A stretch of 64,000 bases of DNA from Planctomycetota bacterium (GCA_016722065.1 JADKGX010000001.1:1036951-1100950); one strand, 5' to 3'. Positions 44,229-58,404 are shown, counted from the stretch's first letter. Notes: generated by a model not told the origin, from the sequence alone. Numbers and translations: made by a program.

Positions 44229-44771
44229 ATGTACGTCATTGACGGCTATAACCTGCAACACGCCCTGGCACGACACAACGTGCTGCCGGGCGATTTTGGC
44301 CGCGCCCGGGCGCGCCTGATTGAGTTGCTGGGCCACCTGGCCCGACGCGAAAGCACCAACCTGCGCATCTTCTTTGACGGGGCACCGGGCCAGCTTGCGC
44401 CCGGCGAAATCAGCTACCCCGGGGTTTCGGTGCTGTTCTGTGGCGAAGGGATTGAAAGTGCCGACCACGCTGTACGCGAATACGTCGAAAACAGTGCCCA
44501 CCCCGGCAAGTTGCGCGTGGTCAGCAGCGACCGGGCCGTGGCCCGCGCCTGCAAGCTCAGTGGCGCAAAGGTCATGAGTGCCCAGGACATGGCCGATCGC
44601 CTGGCCAGTCTGGTCAGCGAAGGTCGCGCCCCGCGCGGCAGCGCCCTGGAAAAACCAACCCGCGGCGCGATCGGACGCATTGAGCGCGAAATGATTGACG
44701 ACATCGGCGACCTGCGCGCCTTTGAACAACAGGTGCTGCGCGAACTGACAGACAACAAAGACCTTCCATGA
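44229..44771 (+). CDS. NYN-domain (YacP/Rae1-like, PIN-related) predicted ribonuclease
   Basis: MYVIDGYNLQHAL ... IFFDG ... ADHAVREYV ... VVSSDRAVARACKLSGAKVMSAQ matches the YacP-like NYN pattern. Its stop overlaps the start of TPR paralog 1 (ATGA). Confidence 0.7.
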   Translation: MYVIDGYNLQHALARHNVLPGDFGRARARLIELLGHLARRESTNLRIFFDGAPGQLAPGEISYPGVSVLFCGEGIESADHAVREYVENSAHPGKLRVVSSDRAVARACKLSGAKVMSAQDMADRLASLVSEGRAPRGSALEKPTRGAIGRIEREMIDDIGDLRAFEQQVLRELTDNKDLP

Positions 44772-46228
44772 GCCCGGCCCCCGCCGAGCAAGCCTACCTG
44801 TTCCAGCACGCCCTGCTGCGCGAAGCTGCCTACGAACTTCAGCCCCCCACCGACCGCGCCAACCTGCACGCCCTTGCCCTGGCTTCCCTGGAAACAGTGC
44901 TGCAGGCGCTGCCCGGCGCCCTGGATGCTTCAGCCCTGGAGCTTGCAAACCACGCGCGCCTTGGAGCGGCCAGCCACGACGACCTGCAGGCACGCGAACT
45001 GCATTACCTTCAAATCGCCCGTGCTTACGCAGCCGGCCAATACCGGCATGATGTAGAGGCCGACTGCCTGGCCCGCATTCTGGCCCATCCGGGCGTCACG
45101 CCCGACATTCGTTTGCGGGCCCTGGAAAACATGGGCCACAACCGCTACCGCCTGGGGCGAACCGAAGACGCGCGGAGCTGTTTTGAAAACCTGCTGGCCG
45201 ACGCACGCAAACTGCACCGGGCACCGGCGGAGTTGGCAGCCCTGACCGGCCTTGGACAGGCCCTGCGCGCGCTGGGCCAGATTGCCAGGGCGGCGGAAGT
45301 GCTTTCCGAAGCGGCTGCGCTGGCACACAGCCAGGGCGACCAAAGGCAACATGGGATTGCACTGGGCATGCGGGCGGTACTGTTGCAGCAGCAGAACCAG
45401 TTCGCTCCGGCCGACGAAGCCTTTGCCGCTGCCCTGGCCGCCGCGCGTGCGGTAGGCGACCGCAAATCTGAAGAATTGGCGCTGGGCAACTGGGCCAGCC
45501 TTTTTCTTATGCACTTTCAATTTGACCGTGCCCAGGAGCTTTATGAACAAGCTCTGGCGATTTCCCTGCAACGCGGCGACTTGCGCACCCAGGGCATCTG
45601 GACCGGCAATCTCGCCCTGCTCCACGGCAAGCTGGGCGACCGGCCTCGGGCCGATGCCTGGATTGAAGAAAGCCTGCGCATTGCGCGCCGGTGCGGTGAC
45701 CGCCGCACCGAGGCCAGCATGCTGCTGAACGTTGCGGTGTCCCGTCTTGTCGACACCGAAGGACCCGCCCGCATGCGTGCCGCGCAACAGGCCCTGGACC
45801 TGTGCGCGGAAATCCAGTCACCACCGCTGGAGTTACGCGCGCGCATCCTGCTGGGACGCTGCGACCTGGAGCAGGGTCGAGCCGAACAAGCCCTGGCCGC
45901 ACTGGACGCGGCAGTTCAGACCGCGCGCAAATTGCGCGACCCGCGCCAACAAGGCGAAGCCCTGGGCTACGGCGCTGGCGCCCTTCTTTTGCTGGGTCGT
46001 AAGGAGGACTATCAGCCCCGGCTGTTACAGGCCATCGAATGCGCCACCCAGGCGTCGGACCCCGAGAGTTATGCCGGCTGGTGCGTCGAGTTAGCCGTAG
46101 ACCTGCGACAGCAGGGTCAGGAACAACTGGCCCAAAAGTGGTACCAGCAAGGCATGCAGGCCCTGGCGGACGTGCATGACCCCGCCATGGAAGCGCGCCT
46201 GGCTGCAAAATTCGGACAAACCCCATGA
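44768..46228 (+). CDS. TPR-repeat protein, paralog 1 of 7 (STAND winged-helix signature at N-terminus, no NTPase domain)
   Basis: N-terminus MSPAPAEQAYLFQHALLREAAYELQPPTDRANLHALALASLE, then ..LELANHA.. and TPR-like repeats. ATGA coupling to the NYN gene. Confidence 0.8.
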   Translation: MSPAPAEQAYLFQHALLREAAYELQPPTDRANLHALALASLETVLQALPGALDASALELANHARLGAASHDDLQARELHYLQIARAYAAGQYRHDVEADCLARILAHPGVTPDIRLRALENMGHNRYRLGRTEDARSCFENLLADARKLHRAPAELAALTGLGQALRALGQIARAAEVLSEAAALAHSQGDQRQHGIALGMRAVLLQQQNQFAPADEAFAAALAAARAVGDRKSEELALGNWASLFLMHFQFDRAQELYEQALAISLQRGDLRTQGIWTGNLALLHGKLGDRPRADAWIEESLRIARRCGDRRTEASMLLNVAVSRLVDTEGPARMRAAQQALDLCAEIQSPPLELRARILLGRCDLEQGRAEQALAALDAAVQTARKLRDPRQQGEALGYGAGALLLLGRKEDYQPRLLQAIECATQASDPESYAGWCVELAVDLRQQGQEQLAQKWYQQGMQALADVHDPAMEARLAAKFGQTP

Positions 46229-47715
46229 ACGCGCCCTCCGCCGAGCAAGCCTATTTGTTCCGGCACGCGCTGTTGCGTGAGGCCGCCTACGAACTGCAAC
46301 CGCCAACCCAGCGCGCGGCCTTGCACGCCATTTGTCTGCAATTGCTTTCGACACTGGCGCAGGCACGGCCTGAACTGGCCGGCGCCATGGCGCTGGAACT
46401 GGCCGACCACGCCCACGCTGCCAGCCTTCCCGGCAGCGAGCACGCAGCCAATCGCGACGACCTGGCAAAGGCCGAAGCCTTGTGGTTGTCGATTGCAGCA
46501 GACTACGCCCACCAGAAAGCAGATTACCGTGGCGCCGCGGCGACGTGGCGTCGCCTGCTGGCATGCCCGAACCTGGACGACGCCCGTCGTTCCGACACGC
46601 TGCTGCATCTGGCCACCACGGAGCTCGGGCTGGGCAACGCCGCCACGGCCGAGAGCGTAGCAACGATCGCGCTGGATCTTGGCAAACACCGCGGCGACGA
46701 CAGCACCCAGGGTGCGGCCCTGAACCTTGTGGCGCGGGCCCAGGAAGCACAGGGCCGCAGCGAACAGGCATTGCAGTCCCACCTGCCGGCCGTGGCCGCA
46801 TTGCGCAGGGCCGCTTCCGGCCCGTTACCCCTCGCACTGGCGGGGCTGGCGTCCTGCTTGCGGCAACTGGGCCGCAACAGCGAAGGCTGGCCATGCATTG
46901 AGGAGGCCGTTGAACTGATCGCAGGCCAGGCGACGTCCAAGGACCAAGGGCCCGTGCTGGCCGTGCGCGCCCAGTTTCTGGCCGATGAAGGCAAGAACGA
47001 CACGGCCGTCGTCGCCTACGAAGCCTTGATTGCAAAGCTGGATGCCCGGGGCGCGCGCGCCGCCAGCGCCATGGCCCGCGCCAACATGGGGTTTGCGCTT
47101 TCGGCGCTGGGCCGGCTGGACCAGGCCCATGCCGTGGGCCTTGCGGCATTGCAAGACGCGCGCGCCGTGGGCGCCTTGCACGCCCAGACCGTGGTGCTGA
47201 ACCAGCTGGGCGGCGTGGCGCTGGAACGCAAGCGATTGGAGGAAGCCCTGTCCTGGTTCCAGCAATGCCTGCAGACCGCGCGTGAAAGCGACTATCGCGC
47301 CTACCTGACCACGGCACTGAACAACAACGCGTTGACACTTGACCACCTGGGCCGCCTGCCGGAAGCCGAAGCGCTGCAACGCCAGGCCCTGGAGTTGGCA
47401 CGCCAAAGCGGCAATCGCAGGGCCGAGGGCAGCTCGCTGGCCAACCTGGCCAGCACGCTGCTGGACCAGGACAAGCTGGCAGAGGCCGAAGACTGCGTGC
47501 GCCAGTCGATTGCCATCCAGATCGAGATCAACAACCCGCGCTACCACGCCAGCGCGCTTACCACCCTGTGCAGGCTGCAAGCGCGGCGCGGCGACCTGGA
47601 CTCTGCCTGTGCTTCCCTGCGCCAGGCCGCCGAACTGTTTCAGCAGTCCGGCGACACCGCCAATGCGACTTCCACGCTCGCCGACCTGAACAAGCTGCAA
47701 GGCACCATGCCCTAG
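46225..47715 (+). CDS. TPR-repeat protein, paralog 2 of 7
   Basis: MNAPSAEQAYLFRHALLREAAYELQPPTQRAALHAICLQLL, then ..LELADHA.. and TPR repeats. ATGA overlap with paralog 1. Confidence 0.8.
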   Translation: MNAPSAEQAYLFRHALLREAAYELQPPTQRAALHAICLQLLSTLAQARPELAGAMALELADHAHAASLPGSEHAANRDDLAKAEALWLSIAADYAHQKADYRGAAATWRRLLACPNLDDARRSDTLLHLATTELGLGNAATAESVATIALDLGKHRGDDSTQGAALNLVARAQEAQGRSEQALQSHLPAVAALRRAASGPLPLALAGLASCLRQLGRNSEGWPCIEEAVELIAGQATSKDQGPVLAVRAQFLADEGKNDTAVVAYEALIAKLDARGARAASAMARANMGFALSALGRLDQAHAVGLAALQDARAVGALHAQTVVLNQLGGVALERKRLEEALSWFQQCLQTARESDYRAYLTTALNNNALTLDHLGRLPEAEALQRQALELARQSGNRRAEGSSLANLASTLLDQDKLAEAEDCVRQSIAIQIEINNPRYHASALTTLCRLQARRGDLDSACASLRQAAELFQQSGDTANATSTLADLNKLQGTMP

Positions 47716-47803
47716 CCCACGCGCGCAAAATAGCGGCGACGCCACCCAGGGTCGCGCCTACACTGCATGGGCCAGCCATCTACGAACCTTGAGGCACGCC
47801 GCC

Positions 47804-49207
47804 ATGAGAACCGTTGCCGCCTTGTTGCTGATGCTGGGATTGGCTGTGTCGGCCTGCGCGGGCGACGAAAACAAGGACTCCGGCAGCCAGGCCCTGGCGC
47901 CAGTGACCTCGTTGGTTGCGACGCAGGGCGATGGCCAGCTTGCCTTGGCCTGGGTGAACCCCACGTTTGCGGACTTTGCAGGCGTTACCTTGCGCCGCGA
48001 CACGTCTGGGGCGCCAGCCACACCAACTTCGGGCGTGCTGGTGTATGAAGGCACGGGCCTGGGCGTGGTGGACAGCGCCCTGGCCAACGGCGTGCGCTAC
48101 TATTACTCGGCCTTTGCCCATGACGCAGCGGGCAGTTACGCCGCCGGCACGTTGGCCGATGGCGTGCCCAACCCGGCAAGCCCGGTGCAACTGGCCTTTG
48201 CGGGAGTCGGCGGCGGCGGCGGCGACCACGGCATTTTCGACCCGTCGCTTGCACTGGATCCGGCTTCCGGCCGCATCTGGATGGCGTATTCAGAAGTCAT
48301 CGATTCGCCCCAGTGGCCCGGGCAGAACCGCTTCATCAGCACGCGTATTGGCTGGTCCGACGACCAGGGCGCCAGCTGGGCCGACCAGGGCGTAATCAAC
48401 CCCGCCCAGGACGTCACGATACCGCTTGCGCCACCCAACAACGCTGGCACCTGGGTCAACGAAACTCCGTCGCTGGTTTACGACGCCGCCGCGCCGGCCA
48501 ATGAACGCTGGAAGTTGATGTGGATGCGCTATCTGCTGGTCAATGGCGTGCGCCACTTTGAGCACGGCTGGATGGGCATCAAGACCGCCCCCGACCCCGC
48601 CGGCAGCTGGTCTGCCGAACGCAAACTGTTTGTCGGTTCGCTGTACGACACCAGCAATAACGTCATCATCGGGCCGCCCGAAGTCCAACTTGACCAGTTG
48701 CACCCGGACCTCAACGCCATGCTGGTGGCCGCGGAGCCCGGGCTGCTGGCTGATGCTTCTGGCCTGTACGTCACGCTGTATGCCGCAGAAGGGCTTGCCA
48801 CCAACGGCCGACTGGCCCTGTTGCGTTTGCCTGTCGGCCAGACCACCTGGCAGTATCGCGGTTCGCTGCTGGTCAACGCGACCGACGGGCCGCTGCTGGG
48901 ATTTGACGGCTACTCGGCCCCGGCCCTGTTTGAAAAGGCCGGCCAGCGCTTTCTGGTCGCCACACCCGAAAACGGCGACTACTACCTGGGTGCGCAGGTG
49001 TTTGCCGTGAACAGCTTGAGCAACGCCGCATTGCAGCGAGCTTCCGGCACGCCGGTGGTCACCTTCAGCCACGCTGGCACCGCAGGCAGTTTCAACGGGG
49101 CTGCGGCGTACATTCCGCAAGCCACGGCCAGCGGATTGCTTTACAGCGAGGCCGTCGTGACCAGCGTGGTCGAGTTCCGCATCTACGCCAGCCGCCGTAA
49201 CCCTTGA
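47804..49207 (+). CDS. Lipoprotein with Fn3-like domain and BNR/Asp-box (sialidase-like beta-propeller) region
   Basis: ATG 47804 with GAGG 9 nt upstream; the ORF-track start 47789 is TTG. Lipobox LGLAVSAC. Asp-box SDDQGASW. Confidence 0.5.
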   Translation: MRTVAALLLMLGLAVSACAGDENKDSGSQALAPVTSLVATQGDGQLALAWVNPTFADFAGVTLRRDTSGAPATPTSGVLVYEGTGLGVVDSALANGVRYYYSAFAHDAAGSYAAGTLADGVPNPASPVQLAFAGVGGGGGDHGIFDPSLALDPASGRIWMAYSEVIDSPQWPGQNRFISTRIGWSDDQGASWADQGVINPAQDVTIPLAPPNNAGTWVNETPSLVYDAAAPANERWKLMWMRYLLVNGVRHFEHGWMGIKTAPDPAGSWSAERKLFVGSLYDTSNNVIIGPPEVQLDQLHPDLNAMLVAAEPGLLADASGLYVTLYAAEGLATNGRLALLRLPVGQTTWQYRGSLLVNATDGPLLGFDGYSAPALFEKAGQRFLVATPENGDYYLGAQVFAVNSLSNAALQRASGTPVVTFSHAGTAGSFNGAAAYIPQATASGLLYSEAVVTSVVEFRIYASRRNP

Positions 49208-49311
49208 ACACGCGCGCAATTTTCTCAACGCGCGCCACGCTGACTCGTTCCATGGGCAGGTAGCGCTTCTCACACCCAAAATCGCCAGACCTGATCCACC
49301 GGAGACTCCCC

Positions 49312-50622
49312 ATGGTTCGCAAGACGGCTGCTCTTTCGTTGCTGGCGCTGCTTTCTGCCGGCCCGTTGCTGGCCCAAGCCAAGCTTGATGACGCCCCTGG
49401 CTCCAACGTGCTGGGGCAGCAATGCCCGGAACTGCAACTGGCAGAAGAACCCGTGCAGGGCGCAAAGATCACCCAGGCGGACTTTGCGGGGAAAATGGTT
49501 TTCTTCATGTTCTATCAACGTGGCTGCGAAGGCTGCGAAGAACAAGCCATGCCCGCGTTGCAGAAGCTGTTCGAGAAATACGAGTATTCCAAGTGCGCGC
49601 TGGTGTTCGCCATCAACACCGCCTTTGACAAAGACAAAGACGAATACCTGGCCGACACCGCTGCCACTGCTGCACACCTGCGCGCCAAGGGCTGGACCAT
49701 GCCGGTCATGCGCGACCTGGATGAGGCATCCAACCCGTTGTTCACCATCGACAAAGTCAGTGGCACTCCCCAGGCCGTGGTGCTGGACGAAAACGGTTTC
49801 GTGTGCGACCACGACTGGTACAGCGCCAAAGACGAAATCCGCGACCTGCATGCCACGGCCGATGCCGTGTTTGCCGGTCTGAACTGCGAATGTGTGCGCC
49901 TGCCACGCAAGATGACAGGCGCCTGCAAGGGCGCTTACGAAAGCATCCGCAAAGGCGAATACACGGACGCCTGGGCCAGCGCCGCGGACATTGCCGAAAA
50001 ACCCCAGGCCGCTGCCCAGGACAAACGCGACGCCGAAGAACTGAAGGAATGGCTGACCGGCCTTGTACGCAACCGCACCCGCAAGTTCGAAGAACACTTC
50101 GACTACGACCCGATCGACACCGTGGACCGCGCCCAAGCCATGGCGCCAAGGTTCAAGGCCATTCCCGGCGCCCAGGAGCTCGAGGTCAAGATCGACTCTT
50201 GGCGCAACTCGGACAGTTACAGCAAGTTCAAGCAGGTCAAAGACGAGCTGGAGGTTGCCGAATCCGAAATCGCCAAGCCCACGGCGGACCAGGCCGCGTG
50301 GCTGAAGAAACTGCAGGACATTGGCGCCCGCGCCGGCAATACCTCCGTGGGTGACCGCGCGCGGTCACGCGCTGGCCAGATCAGCAGCCCGCAAGCCGAG
50401 CCCGTCAAGGCCGCAGGGGGCACAAAGGCCGCTACAGGCGGAAGTTCCCGCGCTGGTGGCCAGACGCCCCCGGTGGCAACCGGCGGCCGGCGCATGGGCG
50501 GCACCAGCGACGCCACCAAGCCCGCCGTGGCACCCAGCCGCAGTGCCACGCGCATCAGCGGTGGCGCAGCAACGGCGCCACGCACACGTTCAGAATCCCG
50601 CGTGCTGGGCTCCAGTCGCTAG
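49312..50622 (+). CDS. Secreted thioredoxin-fold (TlpA/ResA-like) protein with helical domain and disordered Ala/Gly/Arg tail
   Basis: GGAG SD. Signal peptide MVRKTAALSLLALLSAGPLLAQA. Redox motif FFMFYQRGCEGCEEQ and GTPQAVVLDENG. Confidence 0.6.
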   Translation: MVRKTAALSLLALLSAGPLLAQAKLDDAPGSNVLGQQCPELQLAEEPVQGAKITQADFAGKMVFFMFYQRGCEGCEEQAMPALQKLFEKYEYSKCALVFAINTAFDKDKDEYLADTAATAAHLRAKGWTMPVMRDLDEASNPLFTIDKVSGTPQAVVLDENGFVCDHDWYSAKDEIRDLHATADAVFAGLNCECVRLPRKMTGACKGAYESIRKGEYTDAWASAADIAEKPQAAAQDKRDAEELKEWLTGLVRNRTRKFEEHFDYDPIDTVDRAQAMAPRFKAIPGAQELEVKIDSWRNSDSYSKFKQVKDELEVAESEIAKPTADQAAWLKKLQDIGARAGNTSVGDRARSRAGQISSPQAEPVKAAGGTKAATGGSSRAGGQTPPVATGGRRMGGTSDATKPAVAPSRSATRISGGAATAPRTRSESRVLGSSR

Positions 50623-50647
50623 GCATGTCGCGGGGCAACCAGGCAAG

Positions 50648-50684
50648 CAGCGCAGGTCTCTGGCCTGCGCTGTTTCCGTTTTTC
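50648..50684 (+). terminator. Rho-independent terminator after the TlpA-like gene
   Basis: CAGCGCAGG-TCTCTGG-CCTGCGCTG followed by TTTCCGTTTTTC. Confidence 0.65.
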
Positions 50685-50715
50685 GTGTTGCCGCTGGTCA
50701 TGGTCTAATGCCGCC
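50680..50715 (+). promoter_or_regulatory. Conserved promoter-like module of TPR paralog 3 (-10-like hexamer 6 nt from ATG; candidate leaderless start)
   Basis: TTTTCG, 18 nt, TCTAAT, GCCGCC, ATG(50716). No SD. Same architecture and spacing as at 53689 and 55485. Confidence 0.4.
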
Positions 50716-52014
50716 ATGGCTTTGCCCGCCGCCGAAGACGCCTACGTGTTTCGCCACGCCCTTGTGCGCGATGCGGCCTATGAGCTGCAGCCGCCCAGCG
50801 CCCGCGCGCGGCTGCACGGCCTGGCTTTGGGCTGCCTGGAGGAATTGACCGGCGGCCGCCCCGACGAAACCCCCGTGGCCATCGACGACGGCGCAACCGA
50901 TGCCCATCCTTGCGACGCCGTCGCCCTGCAGCTGGCCGACCACGCCGGCCTTGCCGAACCCGGCACCGTGGGCGACCGCGCTGCATTGCGCTGTCTGTAC
51001 CTTCGCCGCGCCGCTGAGCACGCCGAACGCCTGCACCAGTACCCACAGGCGCGCCAACTTTGGTCGCAGTTGATTCCACTGGCGCAGCCCGGCGCCCGAC
51101 CACGCTGTCTTTTGCGCCTGGCCATGGCCGCCGGCAGGGCTGGCGACAACGCAGCAGCCGTGGCCGCGCTGGAAACACTCAATGCGGATGCCGCCCTGGA
51201 ACCCGAGCTGCGCTGCATGGGTCACAGCCGGCTGTCGCACTTCCTGCGCGAACTGGGCCGCCACGCACCTGCCGAGGCCGCGGCCACCTTTGCCCGGGAA
51301 CTGGCCCGCGCATCCGGCCTGGCGATGCACGAAGCCTGGGCGCTGGGCAACTTGGCCAACCTTCATCGCGACACGGGCCGCGCCGCCGAAGCCGAGCAGG
51401 GCTATGCCCGGGCGCTGGACGTATTCCAGCGCCTGGGTAACCAGCGATATGCAGCGGTGGCGCTGGGCAACTTGGCGGCACTTCGCCAGATGGCCGGCGA
51501 CACCGCCATGGCTGAACATCAGTACCGGCGCGCCCTGCAGCTGTGCAGGGAAGCCGGTGACCTGAGGTTTGAGGGCATCTCGCTGGGCAACCTGGCGATC
51601 GTGCTGCAGCAGCAAGCCCGCCTTGTCGACGCGGCACAGGCCTATGACCAGGCGCTGGAGATTCACCGGCGGACCGGCAACCGCCGATCGGAGGGCATCA
51701 CGCTGGGAAATCTTGCAGGTATGCTGCGCCAGGCAGGACAGCCGAGGCAGGCTCTGGCCGCCTATGAGTCTGCGCTGGCCATGCACCGCGAACTCAGCAA
51801 TCGCAGTTTCGAAGGCGCGCACCTCTGTTACTTCGCATTGTGCCTGGTTGACCTGCGCCGCGCGGACGAGGCCCGCGCCGCGTGGCGCGCCGGCATGGCG
51901 ATCCTGCACGAACTGGGCGACCGCATGCAGGCCGAGCGGGCACGCCAGCCTATGCTCGAAACCTGCCGCAAAGCCGGCATGCCGCCGCTGGACGAGCCGG
52001 AGGCCGCGCCATGA
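50716..52014 (+). CDS. TPR-repeat protein, paralog 3 of 7
   Basis: MALPAAEDAYVFRHALVRDAAYELQPPSARARLHGLALGCLE, then ..LQLADHA.. and regular 40-aa repeats (LGNLANLHRDTGRAAEAEQGYARALDVFQRLGNQRYAAVA..). Confidence 0.85.
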   Translation: MALPAAEDAYVFRHALVRDAAYELQPPSARARLHGLALGCLEELTGGRPDETPVAIDDGATDAHPCDAVALQLADHAGLAEPGTVGDRAALRCLYLRRAAEHAERLHQYPQARQLWSQLIPLAQPGARPRCLLRLAMAAGRAGDNAAAVAALETLNADAALEPELRCMGHSRLSHFLRELGRHAPAEAAATFARELARASGLAMHEAWALGNLANLHRDTGRAAEAEQGYARALDVFQRLGNQRYAAVALGNLAALRQMAGDTAMAEHQYRRALQLCREAGDLRFEGISLGNLAIVLQQQARLVDAAQAYDQALEIHRRTGNRRSEGITLGNLAGMLRQAGQPRQALAAYESALAMHRELSNRSFEGAHLCYFALCLVDLRRADEARAAWRAGMAILHELGDRMQAERARQPMLETCRKAGMPPLDEPEAAP

Positions 52015-53588
52015 CCAAGCCATCCGGCGAGACGATTGACATGCCCGCCGTAGCCGAAGATGCCTACGTGTTTCGCCACGCCCTGCTGCGTGCCGCGGCC
52101 TATGAATTGCAATTACCCGGCGAGCGCGCGGCGCTGCACGCCCTGGCGTTGCACGCAATGCAGAACGCCCTGGGCGGCCCGCCCGCCATGCCTTCCTTGT
52201 GGCCCGGGCAGGAAGCATCGTTCATTCCTCACCCCGGCGATGGCGCAGCAGCCGAACTGGCACAGCACGCGTACATAGCCCGCAGTGCCGCACAGGCCGA
52301 CACCGCGGCACTGGACCAGTCCCGCCGCCTGTACCTGCACCGGGCTGCGCTGCATGCCACTCGCCTGCACGACGGGGCCGCCGCCCGTGACCTGTGGCTG
52401 GAACTGGCACCGCTGCACCAGGGCGCCGCCCGGGCCGCCTGCCTGTGGCGCGCCGCTGAACGTGAACTTCTGCACGGGCTTGGCGCACAGGGCGAATCGT
52501 TGCTGCACCAGGCGCTGGAACTGGCCCGCGCTGCCAGCGACCAGGTCATGCAAGGCGCCGTTTTGGGCACGCAGGCATCCATGCTGCGCGAAACCGGCCG
52601 CAGCGCCGAGTCGGAGGCTGCCTCGACACTGGCCATTGCCATTCACCGGCAGGCTGGCAATCGACCTGCCCTGGGGGCGGCCTTGGGGGCACTGGCGGCT
52701 GCCTATCGCGCCACCGGGCGCGCTGCCCAGGCCGAGGCGGCCTACAACGAAGCACTGGCGATTCATCGTGATGTCGGCAATCGCCGCCAGGAAGCTGTGG
52801 CACTGGCCAACCTGGCAAACCTGTACCGTGAAACTGGGCGTGTGCCTCTGGCTGAGACTTCCTATCAACAGGCCCTGCAGATCTTGCGGGCCGTCGGCGA
52901 CCGCCGGGCTGAAGGCATGACACTGGGCAACCTGGGTTCTGTCTTTCTTCAGACCAACCGCGTGGCAGAGGCGGAAGCGGCCTACCGCCTGGCCCTGGAA
53001 TACAATCGCCAGGTAGGCGACCGCAGGGCCCAAGGCGTTTCCCTGGGGCACATCGCCGGGGTGCTGCTGCACCAGGGCCGCGCCCAGGAGGCCGCGGACC
53101 TGTATCAGCAGGTCATTGCCATTGCAAGCGAAGTACGCGACCGCGCTACGCAAGGCCACGCCTTGGGCAATCTCGCTGACCTGTACATCCAAACGGGCAG
53201 CCACGACCGGGCCGCACCCCTGATTGAGGCCGCGCTGGCCATTCACCGCGAAGTCGGCAACCGCCGCAGTGAGGGCGTGGCGCTGGGCAGTCTTGCCGAA
53301 TTGCAGTTGGCCAAAGGCAACGCGCGCGCCGCCGAAACAACTCTGCGCAATGCCCTGGAGGTACATCGCAAGGTCAACAACCGGCGCTTTGAAGCCATGG
53401 ACCTGTGCCGCCTGGCGCGCGTACTGGTCGCACTGGGCCGCCGCGATGAAGCCCAGGCGGCCTGGCACCAGGGTGCCGATGCCTTGCGCAACCTGGGCGA
53501 CACCAGCGCCATTGCCAGCGCCCGCGTGCTGCTTGACCAGGCATGCAAAGACAACGCGATGGCCGTCATGGCCGATGCCCGGCCGTAA
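52011..53588 (+). CDS. TPR-repeat protein, paralog 4 of 7
   Basis: ATGA overlap with paralog 3. ..MPAVAEDAYVFRHALLRAAAYELQLPGERAALHALALHAMQ; an alternative start at ATG 52041 would give the family-typical short N-terminus. About nine 40-aa TPR_12-like repeats. Confidence 0.8.
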   Translation: MTKPSGETIDMPAVAEDAYVFRHALLRAAAYELQLPGERAALHALALHAMQNALGGPPAMPSLWPGQEASFIPHPGDGAAAELAQHAYIARSAAQADTAALDQSRRLYLHRAALHATRLHDGAAARDLWLELAPLHQGAARAACLWRAAERELLHGLGAQGESLLHQALELARAASDQVMQGAVLGTQASMLRETGRSAESEAASTLAIAIHRQAGNRPALGAALGALAAAYRATGRAAQAEAAYNEALAIHRDVGNRRQEAVALANLANLYRETGRVPLAETSYQQALQILRAVGDRRAEGMTLGNLGSVFLQTNRVAEAEAAYRLALEYNRQVGDRRAQGVSLGHIAGVLLHQGRAQEAADLYQQVIAIASEVRDRATQGHALGNLADLYIQTGSHDRAAPLIEAALAIHREVGNRRSEGVALGSLAELQLAKGNARAAETTLRNALEVHRKVNNRRFEAMDLCRLARVLVALGRRDEAQAAWHQGADALRNLGDTSAIASARVLLDQACKDNAMAVMADARP

Positions 53589-53688: not shown

Positions 53689-53724
53689 TTTTCGCATCCT
53701 GCCAAGGCATGTTCTAATGCCGCC
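53689..53724 (+). promoter_or_regulatory. Conserved promoter-like module of TPR paralog 5
   Basis: TTTTCG, 18 nt, TCTAAT, GCCGCC, ATG(53725). CCGTTTTTCG and CATG.TCTAATGCCGCCATG are identical to the paralog 3 upstream region at the same spacing. Confidence 0.4.
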
Positions 53725-55302
53725 ATGCGGCAACACAGCGCCGAAGACGCCTACCTGTTTCGCCATGCAATGTTGCGCGAAGCGGCGTACCAGTTGCAGC
53801 CGCCGCTTGACCGCGCATTGCTGCATGCCGCGGCTTTCACGCTGGTGGAGGCAGCATATGGGGGCCCCGCGCCGGAACTGCCGCCGCCGGTAACCGGCAG
53901 AATGCAGCCGATGATCCCCCACCGCACCGACGCCGTCGCCCTCGAACTCGCGAGCCACGCGGAGCTGGCCCAACACGTGGATCTGGACATCGGCATGGCT
54001 AACGCGGCCCGGCGTTACATCCACCGCGCGGCCTGCCTTGCTACGGAGCAATTCCGGTTCCATGAGGCGATTGGTTTATGGCGCCGGCTGGCCGAAAGGC
54101 TGTCAGGCCAACCCATGCTGATTGCCCTGTCCCGATGCGGGACCGCAGCCAAGGAATGGGGCGATGCAGCTTTGGCAAGGCGCACGCTTGAGGAACTCCA
54201 CGAAAAGGCCTGGGCAGCAGGCGACCAGCACATGCAGGGCATCGCGCTGGGCGAACTGGCGCAGGCCATGACCGCGCAAGGCGATCTTGTCGCCGCAGAG
54301 GCCGCAGTGCGCGAATCCATCGCCATGTTGCGCGTACTGGCCGTGCCCCGGTCCCTTGCGGCATCGATTTCGGGGCTGGCAAATCTGCTATGGCGCGGGG
54401 GCCACGCAGATAGTGCCCAGGCCCTGTGGCGCGAGGCCCTAGAACTGCTGGCCGGGCAAGATCCCGACGACGCCCGCGCCGCAATCCTTAACAACCTTGC
54501 GGGCTGCTTCGGCCGGCTGGGCAATACTGCGCAGGCCGAACCGCTGTTTCGGCAAGCCATGGATATTCACCAGGCGCAGGGCCAACGACACGCCGTCGAG
54601 CTCGTCCGCATGAACCTTGCCAATCTTTTCGCCGAGACCGGCCGCGTGCCGCAAGCGCTGACCATCTACCGGCAGTCCGTTCAGGCTCTTTCCGGCCTGG
54701 GGCATCGCCGGCTGGAGGGTGTGGCCCTGGCAAACCTGGCGGCCATCCTGTTCAACACCGGCGAAAAATACGAATCAGAAGACCTCCTTTTGAAGGCGAT
54801 CGCCATCCACCACGAGGTTGGCGACAACCAACGGCTGGCCCACGCCCTGTCAACGCTGATGGCGGTGTACCAGAACAGCGGCCGGCATGAACTCGCCCTT
54901 GCCACCGGCCAGCAAACTCTGGAACTGTGTCGCGCGCTGGGCCTGAAATCTGATGAGTCGACGGTGCTCTACAACCTGGCTTCCATGGCCGTGGACCAGA
55001 AGCAACTCGATCAGGCATGCGCCTTGTTTGAGCAGGCCATTGCCATGCAGCGGCAGATTGGCCTGCCGGTGAAGCTTGCGGGCTCCTTGTGCAACTACAT
55101 GCACGCCCTGCTGCTGCTTGGCCGAATCGACGAAGCCCGCGCGGCCTGGCTGGAAGGCGCGGCGCTTTTGAAGGACTTTCGCGACATTGCGGACCTGAAG
55201 AACAAACAACGCACCATGCAGAAGTTGTGCGTCGAATGCGGTATCGAGCCCTTCGGCATGCCGGTACGTTCGGGCCCCGTCCCGCCCGGGCCGCAAGCCT
55301 GA
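53725..55302 (+). CDS. TPR-repeat protein, paralog 5 of 7
   Basis: Start moved to ATG 53725 (MRQHSAEDAYLFRHAMLREAAYQLQPPLDRALLHAAAFTLVE). The upstream 167 codons of the 692-aa ORF overlap paralog 4 out of frame. Ends at TGA 55300-55302. Confidence 0.8.
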   Translation: MRQHSAEDAYLFRHAMLREAAYQLQPPLDRALLHAAAFTLVEAAYGGPAPELPPPVTGRMQPMIPHRTDAVALELASHAELAQHVDLDIGMANAARRYIHRAACLATEQFRFHEAIGLWRRLAERLSGQPMLIALSRCGTAAKEWGDAALARRTLEELHEKAWAAGDQHMQGIALGELAQAMTAQGDLVAAEAAVRESIAMLRVLAVPRSLAASISGLANLLWRGGHADSAQALWREALELLAGQDPDDARAAILNNLAGCFGRLGNTAQAEPLFRQAMDIHQAQGQRHAVELVRMNLANLFAETGRVPQALTIYRQSVQALSGLGHRRLEGVALANLAAILFNTGEKYESEDLLLKAIAIHHEVGDNQRLAHALSTLMAVYQNSGRHELALATGQQTLELCRALGLKSDESTVLYNLASMAVDQKQLDQACALFEQAIAMQRQIGLPVKLAGSLCNYMHALLLLGRIDEARAAWLEGAALLKDFRDIADLKNKQRTMQKLCVECGIEPFGMPVRSGPVPPGPQA

Positions 55303-55449: not shown

Positions 55450-55484
55450 ATTAAGGGTGCGCCCGCGACAGATTGCGCGACGAA

Positions 55485-55520
55485 TTCTCGCCCGGAACTG
55501 CAACAACATACAATGCCGCT
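55485..55520 (+). promoter_or_regulatory. Conserved promoter-like module of TPR paralog 6
   Basis: TTCTCG, 18 nt, TACAAT, GCCGCT, ATG(55521). TACAAT is a near-consensus -10 hexamer placed 6 nt from the start codon. No SD. Confidence 0.45.
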
Positions 55521-57065
55521 ATGCACGCCGAGCAAGCCTACCTGTTTCGCCACGCCCTGCTGCGCGACGCCGCGTACCAGCTGCAACTTCCGGCGGACCG
55601 GGGGCAACTGCATGGGCTGGCGCTGGCGGCGATTGAGTCCGTGTTGGGCGGGCCGCCACCTGCACCGGCCGACGACGACCTGCCGGCCTCCGATCGATGG
55701 TCGCCCCACCCCATGGACAGCAGCGCGGCGGAACTTGCGCATCACGCAGCGCTGGCGCTGCAGGCGGACAGCCCGCCAAACCCGGCGCTAAGAGATGCGC
55801 GTCGCCTGTACCTGCACCGCGCCGCGGGCCACGCAGAGCAGCAACTGGCACTGCGGTCGGCAATCGTGCTGTGGCGCGAGCTTGCCGCTGAAACCGATGG
55901 CAAACTTTCGGCCATGTGTTTGCGGCGCGCGGCACTCAGTGCTGAAGCCACTGGCGACATCACATCCGCGCATGCACTTTTCAAGGCTGCTCTGGTCGCA
56001 TATCGCGCGCTTGGCCTGCGGCTGAATGAGGGCGTGGCGCTGGGCAACCTTGCCGGGTTGTTTGCAGCGCGCGGCGACATCGAACAGGCCGAGAAACACT
56101 ACCAGCAGGCGCTTGCGATCCACCGCGAACTCGATAACCGGCGCAGCGTGGCAATCATGCTGGGCAACCTGGCCAACCTGTGCAAGGACACCGGTCGCGC
56201 AGCGCAAGCCGAAGAACTGTACCAGCAGGCACTGGCACACCACCGCCAAGACAACGACCGCAACGGCGAAGCGATCGTGCTGGGCAATCTTGCCGAACTG
56301 TGGCAATCGCTGGGCCGCACCGCTGACGCCGAGCGCACCTTCGAGCAAGCGCTGGCCATGCACCGCGCCTCCGGCAAGCGACGCTACCAGGCCATGGTCG
56401 GCAGCACGCTGGCGGTGCTGTACTACCAGACTGGCCGACCGCCGCTGGCCTTTGAGCAGATCGCGCAGGCGATTGCAGTGTTTCGCGAGATTGAAGATCG
56501 TCCCGGCCTGACGGTCACGCTGGCGAACCTTGCAACCATGCGCGCCCAGACCGGCGACCTGGCACAGGCCGAACGCGACGCCCTTGAGGCACTGGAACTC
56601 GCACAGGAAATGGGCCGACGGCGGCTGGTCGCTGGCACGCTGATGACGCTGGCGGATATCTATGTGCGCACCGGTCGAGCAGCACAGGCCGAGCCGATGT
56701 TCCGCCGCACGATTGCAATCATGCGCGCACTCAAGGATTCGCACTCCGAGGCGCAATCCAAGGCCGCGTTGGCATCCTTGCTGGGCGAACAGGGCCAACT
56801 GGACGCCGCCGACGCGCTGTTTACCGAGGCGCTGGCAGCGTTGCAGGCGCTGAAGTTTCTGCGCGACGAAGGGGCCGTGCATTGCGACCACGCACTGGTG
56901 GCGCTGGCTCGCGGAGATCTGGCACTGGCCCGCCAACGATGGCAACGTGGCCAGGGCATGCTGGCCGAGGCAGGCGACGAAGTTGAGCGCAGACTCAAGC
57001 GCGAGGCTATGCGCAATGCCTGTGCAGCAGCTGGCATGGCACTGCTGGACAGCGACACAACATGA
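55521..57065 (+). CDS. TPR-repeat protein, paralog 6 of 7
   Basis: Start moved to ATG 55521 (MHAEQAYLFRHALLRDAAYQLQLPADRGQLHGLALAAIE), then ..AELAHHA.. and about eight 40-aa repeats. Confidence 0.8.
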   Translation: MHAEQAYLFRHALLRDAAYQLQLPADRGQLHGLALAAIESVLGGPPPAPADDDLPASDRWSPHPMDSSAAELAHHAALALQADSPPNPALRDARRLYLHRAAGHAEQQLALRSAIVLWRELAAETDGKLSAMCLRRAALSAEATGDITSAHALFKAALVAYRALGLRLNEGVALGNLAGLFAARGDIEQAEKHYQQALAIHRELDNRRSVAIMLGNLANLCKDTGRAAQAEELYQQALAHHRQDNDRNGEAIVLGNLAELWQSLGRTADAERTFEQALAMHRASGKRRYQAMVGSTLAVLYYQTGRPPLAFEQIAQAIAVFREIEDRPGLTVTLANLATMRAQTGDLAQAERDALEALELAQEMGRRRLVAGTLMTLADIYVRTGRAAQAEPMFRRTIAIMRALKDSHSEAQSKAALASLLGEQGQLDAADALFTEALAALQALKFLRDEGAVHCDHALVALARGDLALARQRWQRGQGMLAEAGDEVERRLKREAMRNACAAAGMALLDSDTT

Positions 57066-58366
57066 TCGACTCCGAAACTGCCTATCTGTTTCGACACGCG
57101 CTGTTGCGCGATGCTGCGTACCAGCTTCATATGCCGCAACAACGAGCCGACCTGCACGGGGAGGCGGCAGAATTGCTGTTGGAACTGCATGGCCAAGCTC
57201 CTGCGCCCCAGCCCGGTCTTGAGATCCTTGCACACCTGCGAACGGCCGCCGAAACCTTGGGCCAGCTTTCGGATGAGTCCGACGGCAACGGCCAGGTGGA
57301 GTTGCGGGAGGGCGGCCGCGCCAAGGCCTTGCTTCAGCGCGAGTTTGCATTGCTGGAGCCGATCGCCATCGAGCTTGGTCGCCGCCGGGACTTGCCCGCA
57401 TTGCTGGCCGTAAGGCAAAGACAACTCCACCACCCCCTTCAGGCCCAGCAATCCAAGGGTGCGGCGCGCCTGGTCTATGCCATCGCCTTGCGCATGTGCG
57501 GCCGTGTGCCAGAGGCTGAATCCATCTATCGCGACGTACTTGCTTCTGCCCAGGCACAAACGGATGCCCTGCTACGCGGACGTTGCGTGGCTGGTCTGGC
57601 CACGATCTTCCAGTACACCGGAAGAGTAAGCGAGGCCGAGACACTGACCCTGGAGGCGATCGAGATTTCGAGGCAGTTGCAGAACAATCCAATGCTCGCT
57701 GTACAGCTTGGAAACTACGGTTCGCTTCTCAAGGAAACCGGCAGGGCAGCCCTGGCTGTTGAACCAACGCAACAGGCCGTGAACCTTGCGCTCGCCACCG
57801 GCCAGACGGACGTCGCCTACAGGTATATGGCAAACCTGACCGGGATTCTCGTGGATGTCGGCGATAACGCTGGAGCCATTGCCATGGGTCGCCGGTGCCT
57901 GGAACTGGTCGTTCAATGGCACATGCCCGACGTGGAAGGAGTGTGCCGCGGGAACATGGCGGCGGCGCTGTCTGCTACAGGCGACCAAAGTACCGCAGAT
58001 AACGAATTCCGGGTCGCGCTGCGGCTCGCCATGGCTTCGGGCGACCACAGAGTCGCGGCCGTTTGGGCATCCGTCGTCGCCCTGAGGGCAATCCGAAAGC
58101 GCGATATCAATGCGGCCGAGTTGGTGCTGCGCCAAGGCCTGGCATCTGCCCTAGAAGCCAACGCCCCGGTCTCTGTTGCAAGGTGCAGCGCCATGCTGAC
58201 GTTGCTGCAACCAGAAGATCAACGCGATCAAGAGCAATTGGACGAAACACTGGCCACCCTTCGCAAGGCGCGGGATGCCAACGCGATCAATGACATTCTC
58301 GAAGCCGCACAACATCTTGGAATCGACATGGCAGACGTAGATGTCGATGGGTCTGCGAATCGCTGA
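57062..58366 (+). CDS. TPR-repeat protein, paralog 7 of 7 (most divergent, lower-GC C-terminal half)
   Basis: ATGA overlap with paralog 6. MIDSETAYLFRHALLRDAAYQLHMPQQRADLHGEAAELLLE. Degenerate repeats. Confidence 0.75.
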   Translation: MIDSETAYLFRHALLRDAAYQLHMPQQRADLHGEAAELLLELHGQAPAPQPGLEILAHLRTAAETLGQLSDESDGNGQVELREGGRAKALLQREFALLEPIAIELGRRRDLPALLAVRQRQLHHPLQAQQSKGAARLVYAIALRMCGRVPEAESIYRDVLASAQAQTDALLRGRCVAGLATIFQYTGRVSEAETLTLEAIEISRQLQNNPMLAVQLGNYGSLLKETGRAALAVEPTQQAVNLALATGQTDVAYRYMANLTGILVDVGDNAGAIAMGRRCLELVVQWHMPDVEGVCRGNMAAALSATGDQSTADNEFRVALRLAMASGDHRVAAVWASVVALRAIRKRDINAAELVLRQGLASALEANAPVSVARCSAMLTLLQPEDQRDQEQLDETLATLRKARDANAINDILEAAQHLGIDMADVDVDGSANR

Positions 58367-58404
58367 TCATTCGCACTCAACTGCCAGCGCAGTCCAAGGG
58401 CGCC

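Follow-up and report, generated by a model that had tools for sequence, protein, structure and literature searches.

STAND and NLR proteins are central immunity and signalling switches in all domains of life. The logic of STAND proteins is thought to need a sensor, an arm and a WHD that clamp the nucleotide-binding core in cis. The TPR-STANDs include PH0952 (6mfv), MalT and the Guanylate_cyc-AAA_16-TPR fusions of the TIGR03903 type. In PH0952, WHD residue His382 binds to the ADP phosphates, contacts to the NBD and the P-loop come from the wing tip and the N-terminal end of helix alpha14, and the arm is the key autoinhibitory element (PMC6468293).

N-terminally truncated NLR paralogs have hitherto been a plant topic. 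Arabidopsis NRG1C is reduced to WHD-LRR and competes successfully with NRG1A for EDS1-SAG101 (PMC12177489). Superhelices of the TPR_12 type are found in LGN/Pins, kinesin light chain (KLC) and Rap, where extended peptides are bound in the concave channel.

Seven paralogous genes were analyzed in a window of 64,000 nucleotides from a Planctomycetota bacterium (GCA_016722065.1 JADKGX010000001.1:1036951-1100950). The encoded proteins are homologous to the TPR-STANDs from the last WHD strand on and share with them the F.H.L.R..AY..L....R..LH block, the LA.H arm motif and the TPR_12 sensor. Unlike the TPR-STANDs, these headless proteins are without an effector, a P-loop NBD, an HD, WHD helices H1-H3 and strands beta1-beta2, and they possess an extra Pro-rich loop (GG.P.P..PH..D), a Cys-containing C-terminal cap and dozens of copies per genome. 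The family has dropped the NBD core yet, under strong purifying selection, keeps the clamp elements, including a WHD His that is 100% conserved. Like NRG1C, its members are functional STAND/NLR paralogs cut to part of the WHD and a repeat sensor, with full-length relatives nearby (PMC12177489). NRG1C, however, belongs to the NB-ARC/LRR clade and is one gene whose ligand is defined, and ligand sequestration is shown for NRG1C only, whereas the headless family comprises hundreds of divergent copies and provides a large bacterial counterpart. The sequence kinship with LGN, KLC and Rap is confined to the TPR repeat; these proteins are without the WHD-stub/arm N-module.

Seven intact genes without an NTPase module

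The preliminary description had listed seven ORFs of 432-525 aa, and all seven are present and intact on the plus strand. The NCBI PGAP annotation makes the identical seven gene calls (MBK9974020, 21 and 24-28). Paralog 1 (p1; 44768..46228; 486 aa; identical to MBK9974020.1) and p2 (46225..47715; 496 aa) are followed by two unrelated plus-strand genes that interrupt the array (47789..50622), both also found in the sister strain. They encode a 472-aa protein whose N-terminus is hydrophobic and which has no Pfam match, and a 436-aa AhpC/TSA-type redoxin. The array continues with p3 (50716..52014; 432 aa; identical to MBK9974024.1), p4 (52011..53588; 525 aa), p5 (53725..55302; 525 aa), p6 (55521..57065; 514 aa) and p7 (57062..58366; 434 aa). 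The reported ATGA overlaps were verified at four junctions (NYN/p1, p1/p2, p3/p4 and p6/p7). At the first of these, the stop of a NYN_YacP-domain gene (44229..44771, plus strand) overlaps the p1 start. An alternative ATG at 52041 would give p4 a family-typical N-terminus, MPAVAEDAY. As had been noted, p7 is more divergent and lower in GC (0.611, GC3 0.669, vs 0.644-0.695 in the other paralogs); its ORF is nevertheless intact.

A terminator-like hairpin with a 14-bp stem and a T-tail (50645..50685, plus strand) lies after the redoxin gene, directly upstream of p3. On the same strand, -10-like hexamers stand 6 nt before the ATG of p3 (TCTAAT, 50704..50709), p5 (TCTAAT, 53713..53718) and p6 (TACAAT, 55509..55514). 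The module CCGTTTTTCG-N18-TCTAAT-GCCGCC-ATG is shared by p3 and p5, and TANAAT-like hexamers are enriched 6-7 nt before the ATG family-wide (29/102). The p3 hexamer suggests a leaderless transcript.

The N-terminal block, the second block and the 40-residue TPR_12-like repeats described earlier occur in every one of the seven ORFs. The first is encoded by a 99-nt block (repeat family D1) that recurs seven times on the plus strand, at 44782..44880 (p1), 46239..46337 (p2), 50730..50828 (p3), 52052..52150 (p4), 53739..53837 (p5), 55526..55624 (p6) and 57070..57168 (p7). It reads AE[QDT]AY[LV]F[RQ]HA[LM][LV]R[EDA]AAY[EQ]L[QH].P..R..LH, with 15 residues invariant across the paralogs. The blocks are 64-80% identical in DNA (64% for p7, 80% between p3 and p4), with identities of 0.77/0.84/0.50 at codon positions 1/2/3, and are thus conserved at the protein level. 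The second block (..A.ELA.HA) is accompanied by TPR_12 repeats with a 120-nt periodicity. Overall pairwise identity of the seven paralogs is only 23-30%.

Profile HMM searches matched TPR_12 in 7/7 proteins (E-values 3e-14 to 3e-42; 53-143 bits, cut-off 30.1), and TPR_MalT exceeded its 45-bit cut-off in p1, p2, p4 and p6. Residues 1-110 of the seven proteins had no Pfam match. No AAA_16, NB-ARC or NACHT match was found in the seven proteins at E<=0.01, and the coding frames of 44000-58700 are all free of a Walker A motif. Reading upstream from each start, an in-frame stop is reached after 14-53 codons, except for p5 (167 codons), where the upstream stretch is the 3' end of p4 read out of frame. 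The NTPase module is thus missing in all seven, as had been proposed.

Mis-called starts, an assembly error or decaying STAND pseudogene fragments could produce such ORFs, and the lower GC and weaker coding score of p7 and the frameshifts in some full-length relatives elsewhere (L012, L159) point that way. The probability of this is negligible. The upstream stops, the lack of a Walker A motif and the agreement of the PGAP calls argue against it, and for the family it is refuted by purifying selection, fixed starts and the same gene order in two other assemblies. Compared with the L157 orthologues, dN/dS is 0.15 for p1 and 0.22 for p2 (dS 0.23-0.27), and coding scores are similar to those of housekeeping genes, p7 being weaker. 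Across 201 intact family copies the median block-to-stop length is 481 aa, the start codon precedes the Phe by 8-9 codons in 150/193, and the N-module occupies residues 1-59 in the best 150 of 1250 profile hits. The seven genes are therefore functional and not debris.

Origin from AAA_16-type STAND ATPases

The block had been recognized as a signature that follows the NTPase in STAND proteins, and this is borne out by profile, full-length relatives and structure model alike. The first residues of p1, p2, p3, p6 and p7 align to positions 828-887 of the 1267 positions of NCBIfam TIGR03903 (kinase/cyclase/AAA/TPR fusion). The same Planctomycetota MAG set includes full-length Guanylate_cyc+AAA_16+TPR proteins (L036, L038 and L039), which carry F[KR]HALLRDAAYSLL..K.R.RLH ~320 aa after Walker A. 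An alignment of 59 such proteins has the consensus E.EY.F.H.L.R.VAY..L....R...H...A...E ... LA.H...A, and the conserved N-module positions of the headless family are those conserved in the full-length STANDs. In the AF2 model of full-length P0251 (pLDDT 87.9), the block forms wing strand beta3 (523-526), His528 and a helix (529-537), directly following the WHD elements H468-477, E483-485, H486-493, H498-506 and E510-512. The best PDB match of this model is the TPR-STAND PH0952 (6mfv, E 2e-14). A NOD+block profile searched against the PDB gave no significant STAND match, PH0952 reaching E 0.46 over the NBD region only.

The position of the block ~320 aa after Walker A and its AF2 placement support the reading of the seven proteins as a WHD stub, an arm and a TPR sensor detached from a STAND ATPase. 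The preceding WHD elements (468-512 in P0251) have no counterpart in the seven proteins, whose WHD is thus incomplete; the conserved WHD histidine motif followed by the arm and repeat sensor is present, with F-R-H at 99-100% in the 201 copies. The proteins start 1-5 residues before the last WHD wing strand. The preliminary description had placed the start at the helix and the arm before the block; the start is at the last WHD beta-strand, and the arm comes after the block.

The family is derived from AAA_16-type STAND ATPases with TPR sensors, probably from the cyclase-AAA_16-TPR lineage that these genomes also contain. It has lost the effector, NBD and HD entirely and the WHD for the most part. 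The retained part begins with the last WHD wing strand and the invariant F-R-H His and continues through the last WHD helix into the arm, followed by a variable solenoid of TPR_12 repeats (LGN/KLC type) and usually a C-terminal cap; the p1 block, for example, codes for the stretch from wing strand beta3 through the conserved His and the last WHD helix to the first arm helix. Judged by model topology and fold match, the F-R-H His would be topologically equivalent to the ADP-contacting WHD His, such as H382 of PH0952.

Over the 201 copies the N-module is much more conserved than the remaining protein (F 99%, R 99%, H 100%, R 100%, Y 100%, P 99%; further positions R 98%, H 98%, E42 95%, H73 93%). 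A conserved Pro-rich loop, GG.P.P...PH..D, follows the first arm helix and is absent in full-length STANDs. The C-terminal cap contains Cys, is specific to the family and is usually present.

NsdA-family and AfsR proteins (NF053720, NF053617) have a weak profile similarity in the TPR region, with scores far below the curated cut-offs (<=44 vs 75; <=89 vs 1430) and an unmatched N-module. The seven proteins are not RRNPP/Rap quorum-sensing receptors either: p5 alone gives an RNPP_C match, below threshold (21.9 vs 26.5 bits), there is no HTH, and the likeness is confined to the fold.

Family size, recombination and the search for heads

The headless family comprises >600 clusters at 50% identity. 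In 23 Planctomycetota genomes 201 copies were found, often in tandem, and one MAG holds at least 44. All seven array proteins have the family features captured by profile A2: an N-module at the extreme N-terminus, a start 8-9 codons before the Phe, TPRs and a length of ~430-560 aa. This is a large Planctomycetota-specific family with dozens of copies per genome in uncultured Planctomycetota. The stand-alone, expanded lineage of the preliminary description therefore holds, but the expansion is genome-wide and clade-wide and not only local. The family is already deposited in databases, where NCBI names its members only "tetratricopeptide repeat protein". For these >600 clusters, the origin and a domain boundary are now defined and a profile is available.

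The genes next to family copies vary. The Pfam families among the 95 upstream and 87 downstream neighbors number 175 and 135, with no conserved neighbor and no enrichment of P-loop or AAA_16 domains. NYN_YacP was matched in 1/95 upstream neighbors and is thus not a conserved partner of the family. A role as an anti-phage defense STAND is not indicated by PADLOC, where only the generic 'TPR' model matched, and the neighbors are housekeeping genes.

The window and the sister strain differ structurally at two places, and at each of them the junctions fall within the conserved block. A block-to-block unit (50830-52052), with the p3 and p4 blocks at its two ends, is missing in L157/L158, which lack p3, and sister-strain homology ends at 53786, within the p5 block, with the p5 body replaced after codon ~21. 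Copies multiply, are lost or are replaced through homologous recombination within the conserved 5' block. The same junctions would fit silent cassettes, in which the 5' block is a recombination site that swaps sensor arms onto an expressed full-length STAND as programmed variation. This is most improbable and largely refuted, since the block is conserved as protein (its DNA varying as given above), each copy has a start codon of its own, in many cases a -10-like element as well, and evolves under purifying selection, and the window contains no full-length acceptor gene. All copies are also in direct orientation, and the exchange resembles ordinary unequal or homologous recombination.

The preliminary description had envisaged NTPase-only partners ending just before the block, which were not found: no NOD ORF of this kind occurs in 1.3 Mb around headless genes, and the closest Planctomycetota cyclase-NOD proteins include no tail-less one, all of them containing the block or being frameshifted. 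No cognate head gene was found next to the 201 copies or in sampled relatives. Full-length cyclase-STANDs lie within 10 kb of headless genes, on the same strand, in L012, L036, L038 and L039.

STAND head and tail can be separate genes, as L076 shows. Its 557-aa cyclase-AAA_16 head (6001-7674) ends inside the WHD, and its 492-aa tail (7671-9149), which starts MTTKGDLQTLEGSGLIRVAAYQPELEYLFRHALVQDAAY, is joined to it by an ATGA overlap. About 12 clusters of tail-less cyclase+AAA_16 proteins of 535-563 aa were found, and the two sequences read (P0260 and P0265) end at the point of the L076 head inside the WHD. Among 82 metagenomic WHD-bearing ORFs, 77 are fused, 3 are cut by a contig end, 1 is too divergent to call and 1 is split, the last being L076, which was already known. 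The L076 tail resembles the headless proteins: it is translated on its own, starts within the WHD and has the same block, arm and TPRs. It is split ~26 residues earlier, however, and keeps helix H3 and the whole wing; its head and tail are adjacent, ATGA-coupled and one to one, whereas the Planctomycetota headless family is without an adjacent head.

Proposed roles of the headless proteins

The near-invariant N-module (~75-120 aa) would dock one shared partner, and the fast-diverging concave TPR surface would bind different peptide or protein ligands, so that each paralog would couple a different input to the same output. The shared partner is argued from the strong conservation of the N-module in paralogs that otherwise have little in common, the ligand-binding solenoid from the match to TPR peptide receptors, and the feasibility of assembly in trans from the split L076 genes; the cyclase-STANDs close to headless genes show that potential heads are co-resident. 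We put this hub-and-adaptor design at slightly under an even chance. Taken together with the STAND-derived origin of the family, it forms the best explanation overall, which we hold tentatively and at somewhat less than even probability. The most plausible hub would be the NBD-HD core that STAND ATPases would supply in trans, and the headless proteins would then be detachable sensor or autoinhibitory subunits of co-resident cyclase-STANDs or of another head. In TPR-STANDs the NBD is clamped in cis by the wing strand and His, the N-terminal end of the last WHD helix and the arm, and the N-module is made up of precisely these parts. Action on a NOD in trans is nonetheless unlikely on balance. 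If true, it would be a new modular build of STAND receptor, with one ATPase reading many inputs; if the module is re-used for something else, the family would reveal what a conserved motif does outside the NOD.

A decidedly less probable extension is a one-to-many split STAND, in which dozens of interchangeable, separately encoded sensor arms per genome would complete the WHD of a few NBD-HD heads in trans. Completion would occur by beta-strand augmentation and delivery of the nucleotide-sensing His. The result would be a combinatorial intracellular receptor repertoire, with for example a cyclic-nucleotide output, diversified by recombination in the 5' block; if true, bacteria would have a counterpart to modular immune-receptor repertoires.

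The structure prediction and Foldseek comparison foreseen at the outset bear on whether a hub is needed. The AF2 model of p6 is an all-helical TPR solenoid (pLDDT 89.9, pTM 0.85) whose top matches are the TPR peptide receptors LGN/Pins, KLC and Rap (E 5e-11 to 1e-6). In this model, residues 3-21 form a helix packed in cis (pLDDT ~80) and residues 3-41 a helical hairpin on the solenoid, so that the N-module could be self-sufficient, which counts against a shared hub. The proteins may instead work autonomously as TPR scaffolds or receptors, singly or in homo- or hetero-oligomers of paralogs, with the stub and arm serving as a cap or dimerization element and no common hub. The confident, self-contained model, its likeness to stand-alone peptide-binding TPRs and the lack of a conserved neighbor are consistent with this; the coupled pairs p1/p2, p3/p4 and p6/p7 would suit heteromers with compatible N-modules, and the hydrophobic pattern Y.LF..ALL..AAY.L fits a buried helix. 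However, polar residues E7, R13, H14, R18, R30, H34 and E42 are kept at 95-100% in paralogs that are ~25% identical, which is rare for a cap, and the same positions are conserved in NOD-containing relatives. We regard autonomy as somewhat unlikely.

Headless proteins could also be ligand sinks or decoys that bind the activating ligands of full-length STANDs through the WHD stub and repeats and so damp signalling. NRG1C provides a precedent (PMC12177489), and full-length cyclase-STANDs with a nearly identical block coexist with headless genes, sometimes adjacent to them. However, with dozens of highly divergent TPR bodies per genome, the headless copies are far more numerous than the few full-length relatives seen, and in the TPR region headless and full-length proteins share just ~30% identity, so that shared ligands are not indicated. 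A decoy role is very unlikely.

Besides the negative searches for a partner, two further observations concern the hub-and-adaptor design and count against it. Tails, at 44 or more per MAG, would be far in excess of any heads, and the family's own Pro-rich loop hints at a new function.

Seven paralogous genes with a conserved start

The window is GC-rich (about 64%) and belongs to a 2.71-Mb contig of an NCBI Planctomycetes MAG. It carries a polysaccharide-synthesis cluster with Wzm/Wzt, a 4240-aa repetitive ORF, recJ, a P460-like ORF, an NYN_YacP gene, the array, and fhs. The array is composed of seven plus-strand paralogs, p1-p7, that begin at 44768, 46225, 50716, 52011, 53725, 55521 and 57062 and encode 486, 496, 432, 525, 525, 514 and 434 aa, as the preliminary description had read them. 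PGAP calls the same seven genes, under MBK99740xx accessions, and labels them "tetratricopeptide repeat protein". The ATGA overlaps proposed in that description are found at four places, NYN/p1, p1/p2, p3/p4 and p6/p7, and p7 is indeed lower in GC (0.611; GC3 0.669).

A repeat search recovered a 99-nt family with exactly seven members (64-80% nucleotide identity), starting at 44782, 46239, 50730, 52052, 53739, 55526 and 57070. This block encodes AE.AYLFRHALLR.AAY.LQ.P..R..LH, the shared N-terminal motif recognized earlier, and the aligned proteins are invariant at E7, A9, Y10, F12, H14, A15, R18, A20, A21, Y22, L24, P27, R30, L33 and H34 (p1 numbering). The His of a second block, ..A.ELA.HA.., is likewise invariant among p1-p7, while overall pairwise identity is only 23-30%. 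The TPR repeats were also recovered, since Pfam matches are to TPR families only (TPR_12 at 3e-14 to 3e-42, plus TPR_MalT and TPR_10). These matches all start beyond about residue 110, and the N-terminal 120 aa are covered by no Pfam, NCBIfam or PADLOC family. The proteins combine an extremely conserved N-module, the first ~75-120 aa, with a variable TPR body.

The claim that the NTPase is missing holds: no Walker A occurs in any coding frame of 44000-58700, and the sole genuine P-loop in the window is that of the Wzt ABC ATPase near 27448. The starts are preceded by in-frame stops at a distance of 14-53 codons, or 167 codons for p5, whose stop-free stretch is the shifted-frame 3' end of p4. 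Long stop-free stretches 5' of some homologous copies in other assemblies (L023 and others) were considered as N-terminal extensions and rejected as out-of-frame read-through of the preceding TPR gene.

The seven are real genes under purifying selection. A sister strain with about 91% nucleotide identity has the gene order of the window; its two assemblies, L157 and L158, are the same in sequence and were counted as one strain. Against L157, dN/dS is 0.15 for p1 and 0.22 for p2 (dS 0.23-0.27); for comparison, RecJ, NYN and the redoxin give 0.03-0.06. Beside this conserved order and constraint, an origin of the ORFs as artefact or debris is barely conceivable.

Three copies, p3, p5 and p6, are uncoupled from an upstream gene. 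Each has a -10-like hexamer exactly 6 nt before its ATG: TCTAAT at 50704-50709 for p3, TCTAAT at 53713-53718 for p5, and TACAAT at 55509-55514 for p6. In p3 and p5 the hexamer is part of a common 45-nt module, CCGTTTTTCG-N18-TCTAAT-GCCGCC-ATG. Family-wide (loci L001-L075), TANAAT-like hexamers lie 6-7 nt before the start in 29 of 102 copies, with at most 3 at any other spacing. Such spacing suggests leaderless transcripts, which would back the annotated starts. A generic sigma-70 consensus scan found zero full canonical promoters before p3, p5 and p6 and supports only the -10-like hexamer. The CCGTTTTTCG element upstream of p3, considered as a -35 box, is actually a terminator T-tail.

Origin of the N-terminal block

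Three independent lines place the block at the end of the NOD (NBD-HD-WHD) of AAA_16-type STAND proteins. NCBIfam TIGR03903, a kinase/cyclase/AAA/TPR fusion of 1267 profile positions, aligns at positions 828-887 with residues 4-8 onward of p1, p2, p3, p6 and p7, and the whole of p1 aligns to positions 829-1251. Full-length cyclase-STANDs are encoded in other Planctomycetota MAGs (L036 2747-6244, L039 3902-7798, and L038) near members of the headless family, that is, proteins made of a WHD stub, arm and TPRs that lack the STAND NTPase. These full-length proteins are laid out as Guanylate_cyc (about 4-170), AAA_16 (about 195-384) and TPRs, and carry ..W/F.F[KR]HALLRD[AS]AYSLL..K.R.RLH.. around residue 540, some 320 aa downstream of the Walker A GDAG[IV]GKS. 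A 59-sequence cyclase-AAA_16 alignment from many phyla gives the consensus E.EY.F.H.L.R.VAY..L....R...H...A...E...LA.H...A, with conservation of F 95%, H 80%, R 91%, H 88% and H 87%.

The AF2 model of p6 (48 homologues; pLDDT 89.9, pTM 0.85) is entirely helical: a helix at 3-21 (pLDDT about 80) is followed by one at 24-41, a Pro-rich loop of low confidence spans 42-65, and the remainder forms an unbroken solenoid. The former WHD strand is predicted in this model as an N-terminal extension of the helix. Foldseek comparison of the p6 model returned, as best structural matches, the peptide-binding TPR superhelices LGN/Pins, KLC and Rap, and the solenoid is peptide-receptor-like. Since these matches are generic TPR proteins only, the WHD claim was tested on the model of a full-length relative, the Planctomycetia protein P0251 (pLDDT 87.9, pTM 0.79). 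This model contains a canonical winged helix (H468-477, E483-485, H486-493, H498-506, E510-512, a wing loop, and E523-526). Its block is modelled as strand 523-526 (ELAF), R-H528, helix 529-537 (ALLRDAAYS) and the first arm helix, 541-559. Among PDB structures, the P0251 model is closest to the TPR-STAND PH0952 (6mfv; E 2e-14, 731 aligned columns). Thus, p1-p7 begin at the last WHD beta-strand and are composed of a WHD stub, an arm and a TPR sensor.

In PH0952, the WHD residue His382, located right behind the S7-S8 wing, forms hydrogen bonds with the ADP phosphates, and the NBD and P-loop are touched by the wing tip and by the N-terminus of the next helix; autoinhibition of TPR-STANDs depends mainly on the arm (PMC6468293). 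Topology and fold suggest that His14 is the equivalent of this ADP-sensing histidine. Sequence profiles did not reach solved STANDs in PDB searches: the N-module profile gave chance LEAFY matches only (E about 0.7), the L036 NOD gave zero matches, and the NOD+block profile gave P-loop noise only, with 6mfv at E 0.46, so these searches gave no residue-level alignment with a solved STAND.

Because the NBD, HD and most of the WHD were tested for and are absent, p1-p7 are not STAND NTPases. They are homologous to the tail (block, arm and TPRs) of TPR-STANDs and are bona fide TPR_12 proteins, and curated thresholds exclude them from RRNPP, NsdA/AfsR and known defence proteins. N-terminally truncated NLR paralogs are already known in plants. 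The searchable literature yielded no description of a bacterial NOD-less STAND-tail family or of the headless family itself. The family's sequences have already been deposited publicly, under a generic name.

A planctomycete family and its missing head

A survey of related genomes showed that the headless architecture recurs, with 201 copies at E<1e-10 in 75 loci plus the window. The scan of GTDB species representatives gave 357 confirmed stretches, and the 75 retained loci are almost all labelled Planctomycetota MAGs, the exceptions being two from an "uncultured bacterium" bin and two Candidatus Brocadiia. Full-length matches to p6 are 390-560-aa Planctomycetota MAG proteins with 29-47% identity. 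Among 1.84 billion representative proteins, a 119-position N-terminal profile has 1250 matches at E<1e-3 and 612 at E<1e-10; in all of the best 150 of the 1250, the module is at the protein's own N-terminus (start at residue 1-59). The position of the N-terminus is fixed: in 150 of 193 copies, the start codon is found 8 or 9 codons ahead of the Phe. Copies often occur in tandem, 97 of 201 having another same-strand copy directly upstream, with as many as 11 within 20 kb and 44 or more in a single MAG. The family is robust and large, and it poses a sharp, testable question.

Across the 201 copies, conservation reaches E7 98%, Y10 98%, F12 99%, R13 99%, H14 100%, R18 100%, Y22 100%, P27 99%, R30 98%, H34 98%, E42 95% and H73 93%. 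The Pro-rich loop, residues about 42-66 of each paralog (window 55644-55718 in p6), separates the first arm helix from the ELA.HA helix. Its motif GG.P.P...PH..D (G46/G47 94/91%, H61 88%, D64 93%) is specific to the headless family and, modelled with low confidence, has no counterpart in full-length cyclase-STANDs. Most members end in a C-terminal cap, ...FEG.HLC..A..L..G....AR..W..G..IL..LGD....M..AC..AG...FD. The cap is present in p3-p6 (e.g., window 51780-52011); p7 has a degenerate version, and p1 and p2 have none. A role as a docking or autoinhibitory peptide is conceivable for the short C-terminal tail. One family member, P0019 (798 aa, JGI), has a normal headless N-terminus and TPRs followed by a C-terminal APH-type phosphotransferase (kinase-like) domain at 533-764, a possible hint at output activity.

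No tail-less head (the NOD part) was found in Planctomycetota. A phmmer search of 76 loci with NOD and cyclase queries, around 201 copies, returned zero heads. In a cyclase+NOD query against 5.8 billion proteins, each of the closest Planctomycetota cyclase-NOD proteins either contains the block, is truncated at a contig end or carries a frameshift. A natural split did turn up in another lineage. Tail-less cyclase+AAA_16 proteins (535-563 aa) form about a dozen clusters, and the two that were read, P0260 and P0265, stop at the same point inside the WHD (...ILERLLEARTT). An HD+WHD metagenome scan gave 82 WHD-bearing ORFs, of which 77 are fused, 3 are cut by a contig end and 1 is too divergent to call; the lone split case is L076 (JGI 3300078520, Ga0645769_0000044). 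Its head (6001-7674, 557 aa) is composed of Guanylate_cyc and AAA_16 and ends inside the winged-helix domain. Its tail (7671-9149, 492 aa), joined by an ATGA overlap, begins MTTKGDLQTLEGSGLIRVAAYQPELEYLFRHALVQDAAYSSLLKQDRRSLH and continues through the remainder of the WHD to the F.H block and then TPRs. This gene pair, adjacent and one to one, shows that head and tail can be separate polypeptides. An intact 1056-aa cyclase-STAND (2834-6004) lies directly upstream of the split head. Full-length cyclase-AAA_16-TPR genes frameshifted in the NOD or arm occur beside headless genes (L012 7262-9584) and elsewhere (L159 8001-11415); they are either assembly errors or decaying copies and not clean heads.

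A constant N-module on a variable solenoid would suit a hub-and-adaptor design: one shared partner would be bound by the N-module of every paralog, and ligands that differ between paralogs by the TPR groove. We give this design a little less than an even chance. The partner considered most likely is a STAND NBD-HD core, which would be engaged in trans; it is favoured because the cis-clamping elements are exactly what the N-module consists of, and even so this identity is doubtful. In such a one-head-many-tails reading the head is so far missing. Autonomous or mutually oligomerising TPR scaffolds are somewhat unlikely. Ligand sinks have a precedent in NRG1C (PMC12177489); for these proteins that role is improbable. 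The hub-and-adaptor design remains our preferred reading.

Array dynamics and genomic neighbours

The window and the sister strain have two structural differences, with both junctions within the conserved block (window 50730-50829/52053-52150 and about 53786; L157 15962-16060 and 17632-17693). L157 1-16060 corresponds to window 34755-50829, and L157 15962-17693 to window 52053-53786. The overlap between these alignments is the 99-nt block exactly; therefore, the sister strain lacks 50830-52052 (the p3 body), and its gene is a chimera with the p3 promoter and first codons and the p4 body. Homology ends at 53786, about codon 21 of p5, where the sister-strain gene begins MRHHSAEDAYLFRHAMLREAA and then has a different paralog body. 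Since both junctions are inside it, the block evidently acts as a substrate for homologous recombination, deleting and replacing paralog bodies. Silent cassettes exchanged at such a block are a very remote reading, rejected on codon-position identity: pairwise nucleotide identity within the block is 0.77, 0.84 and 0.50 at positions 1, 2 and 3, so its conservation acts at the protein level.

Among 95 upstream and 87 downstream neighbours of headless genes, there is no conserved operon partner and no P-loop enrichment. The upstream neighbours match 175 Pfam families and the downstream ones 135; recurrent types are limited to generic TPR proteins and a handful of syntenic housekeeping genes. NYN_YacP was considered as a conserved partner and rejected, as it matched in one upstream neighbour only, the window's own. 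At L012, L036, L038 and L039, full-length cyclase-STANDs and headless genes share a strand and are no more than 10 kb apart, a suggestive proximity whose excess over chance is not demonstrable.

Two unrelated genes interrupt the array in the window. One encodes a 472-aa protein (47789-49207) whose N-terminus is hydrophobic and which neither Pfam nor NCBIfam matches; a 61%-identical homologue is again directly downstream of a headless gene at L070 (11619-13025). The other encodes an AhpC/TSA-type redoxin (49312-50622) whose long C-terminus is of low complexity and rich in Ala, Gly, Ser and Arg. Between recJ and the NYN_YacP gene lies the 281-aa P460-like ORF (43394-44239, minus strand), with a sub-threshold Cytochrome_P460 match (26.8 bits; cut-off, 27); the sister strain keeps it, with a called length of 241 aa. 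The 4240-aa ORF with internal repeats (28488-41210, minus strand) adjoins the Wzm/Wzt and glycosyltransferase cluster, and the first 934 nt of L157 match many sites within 32044-35687 of the window.
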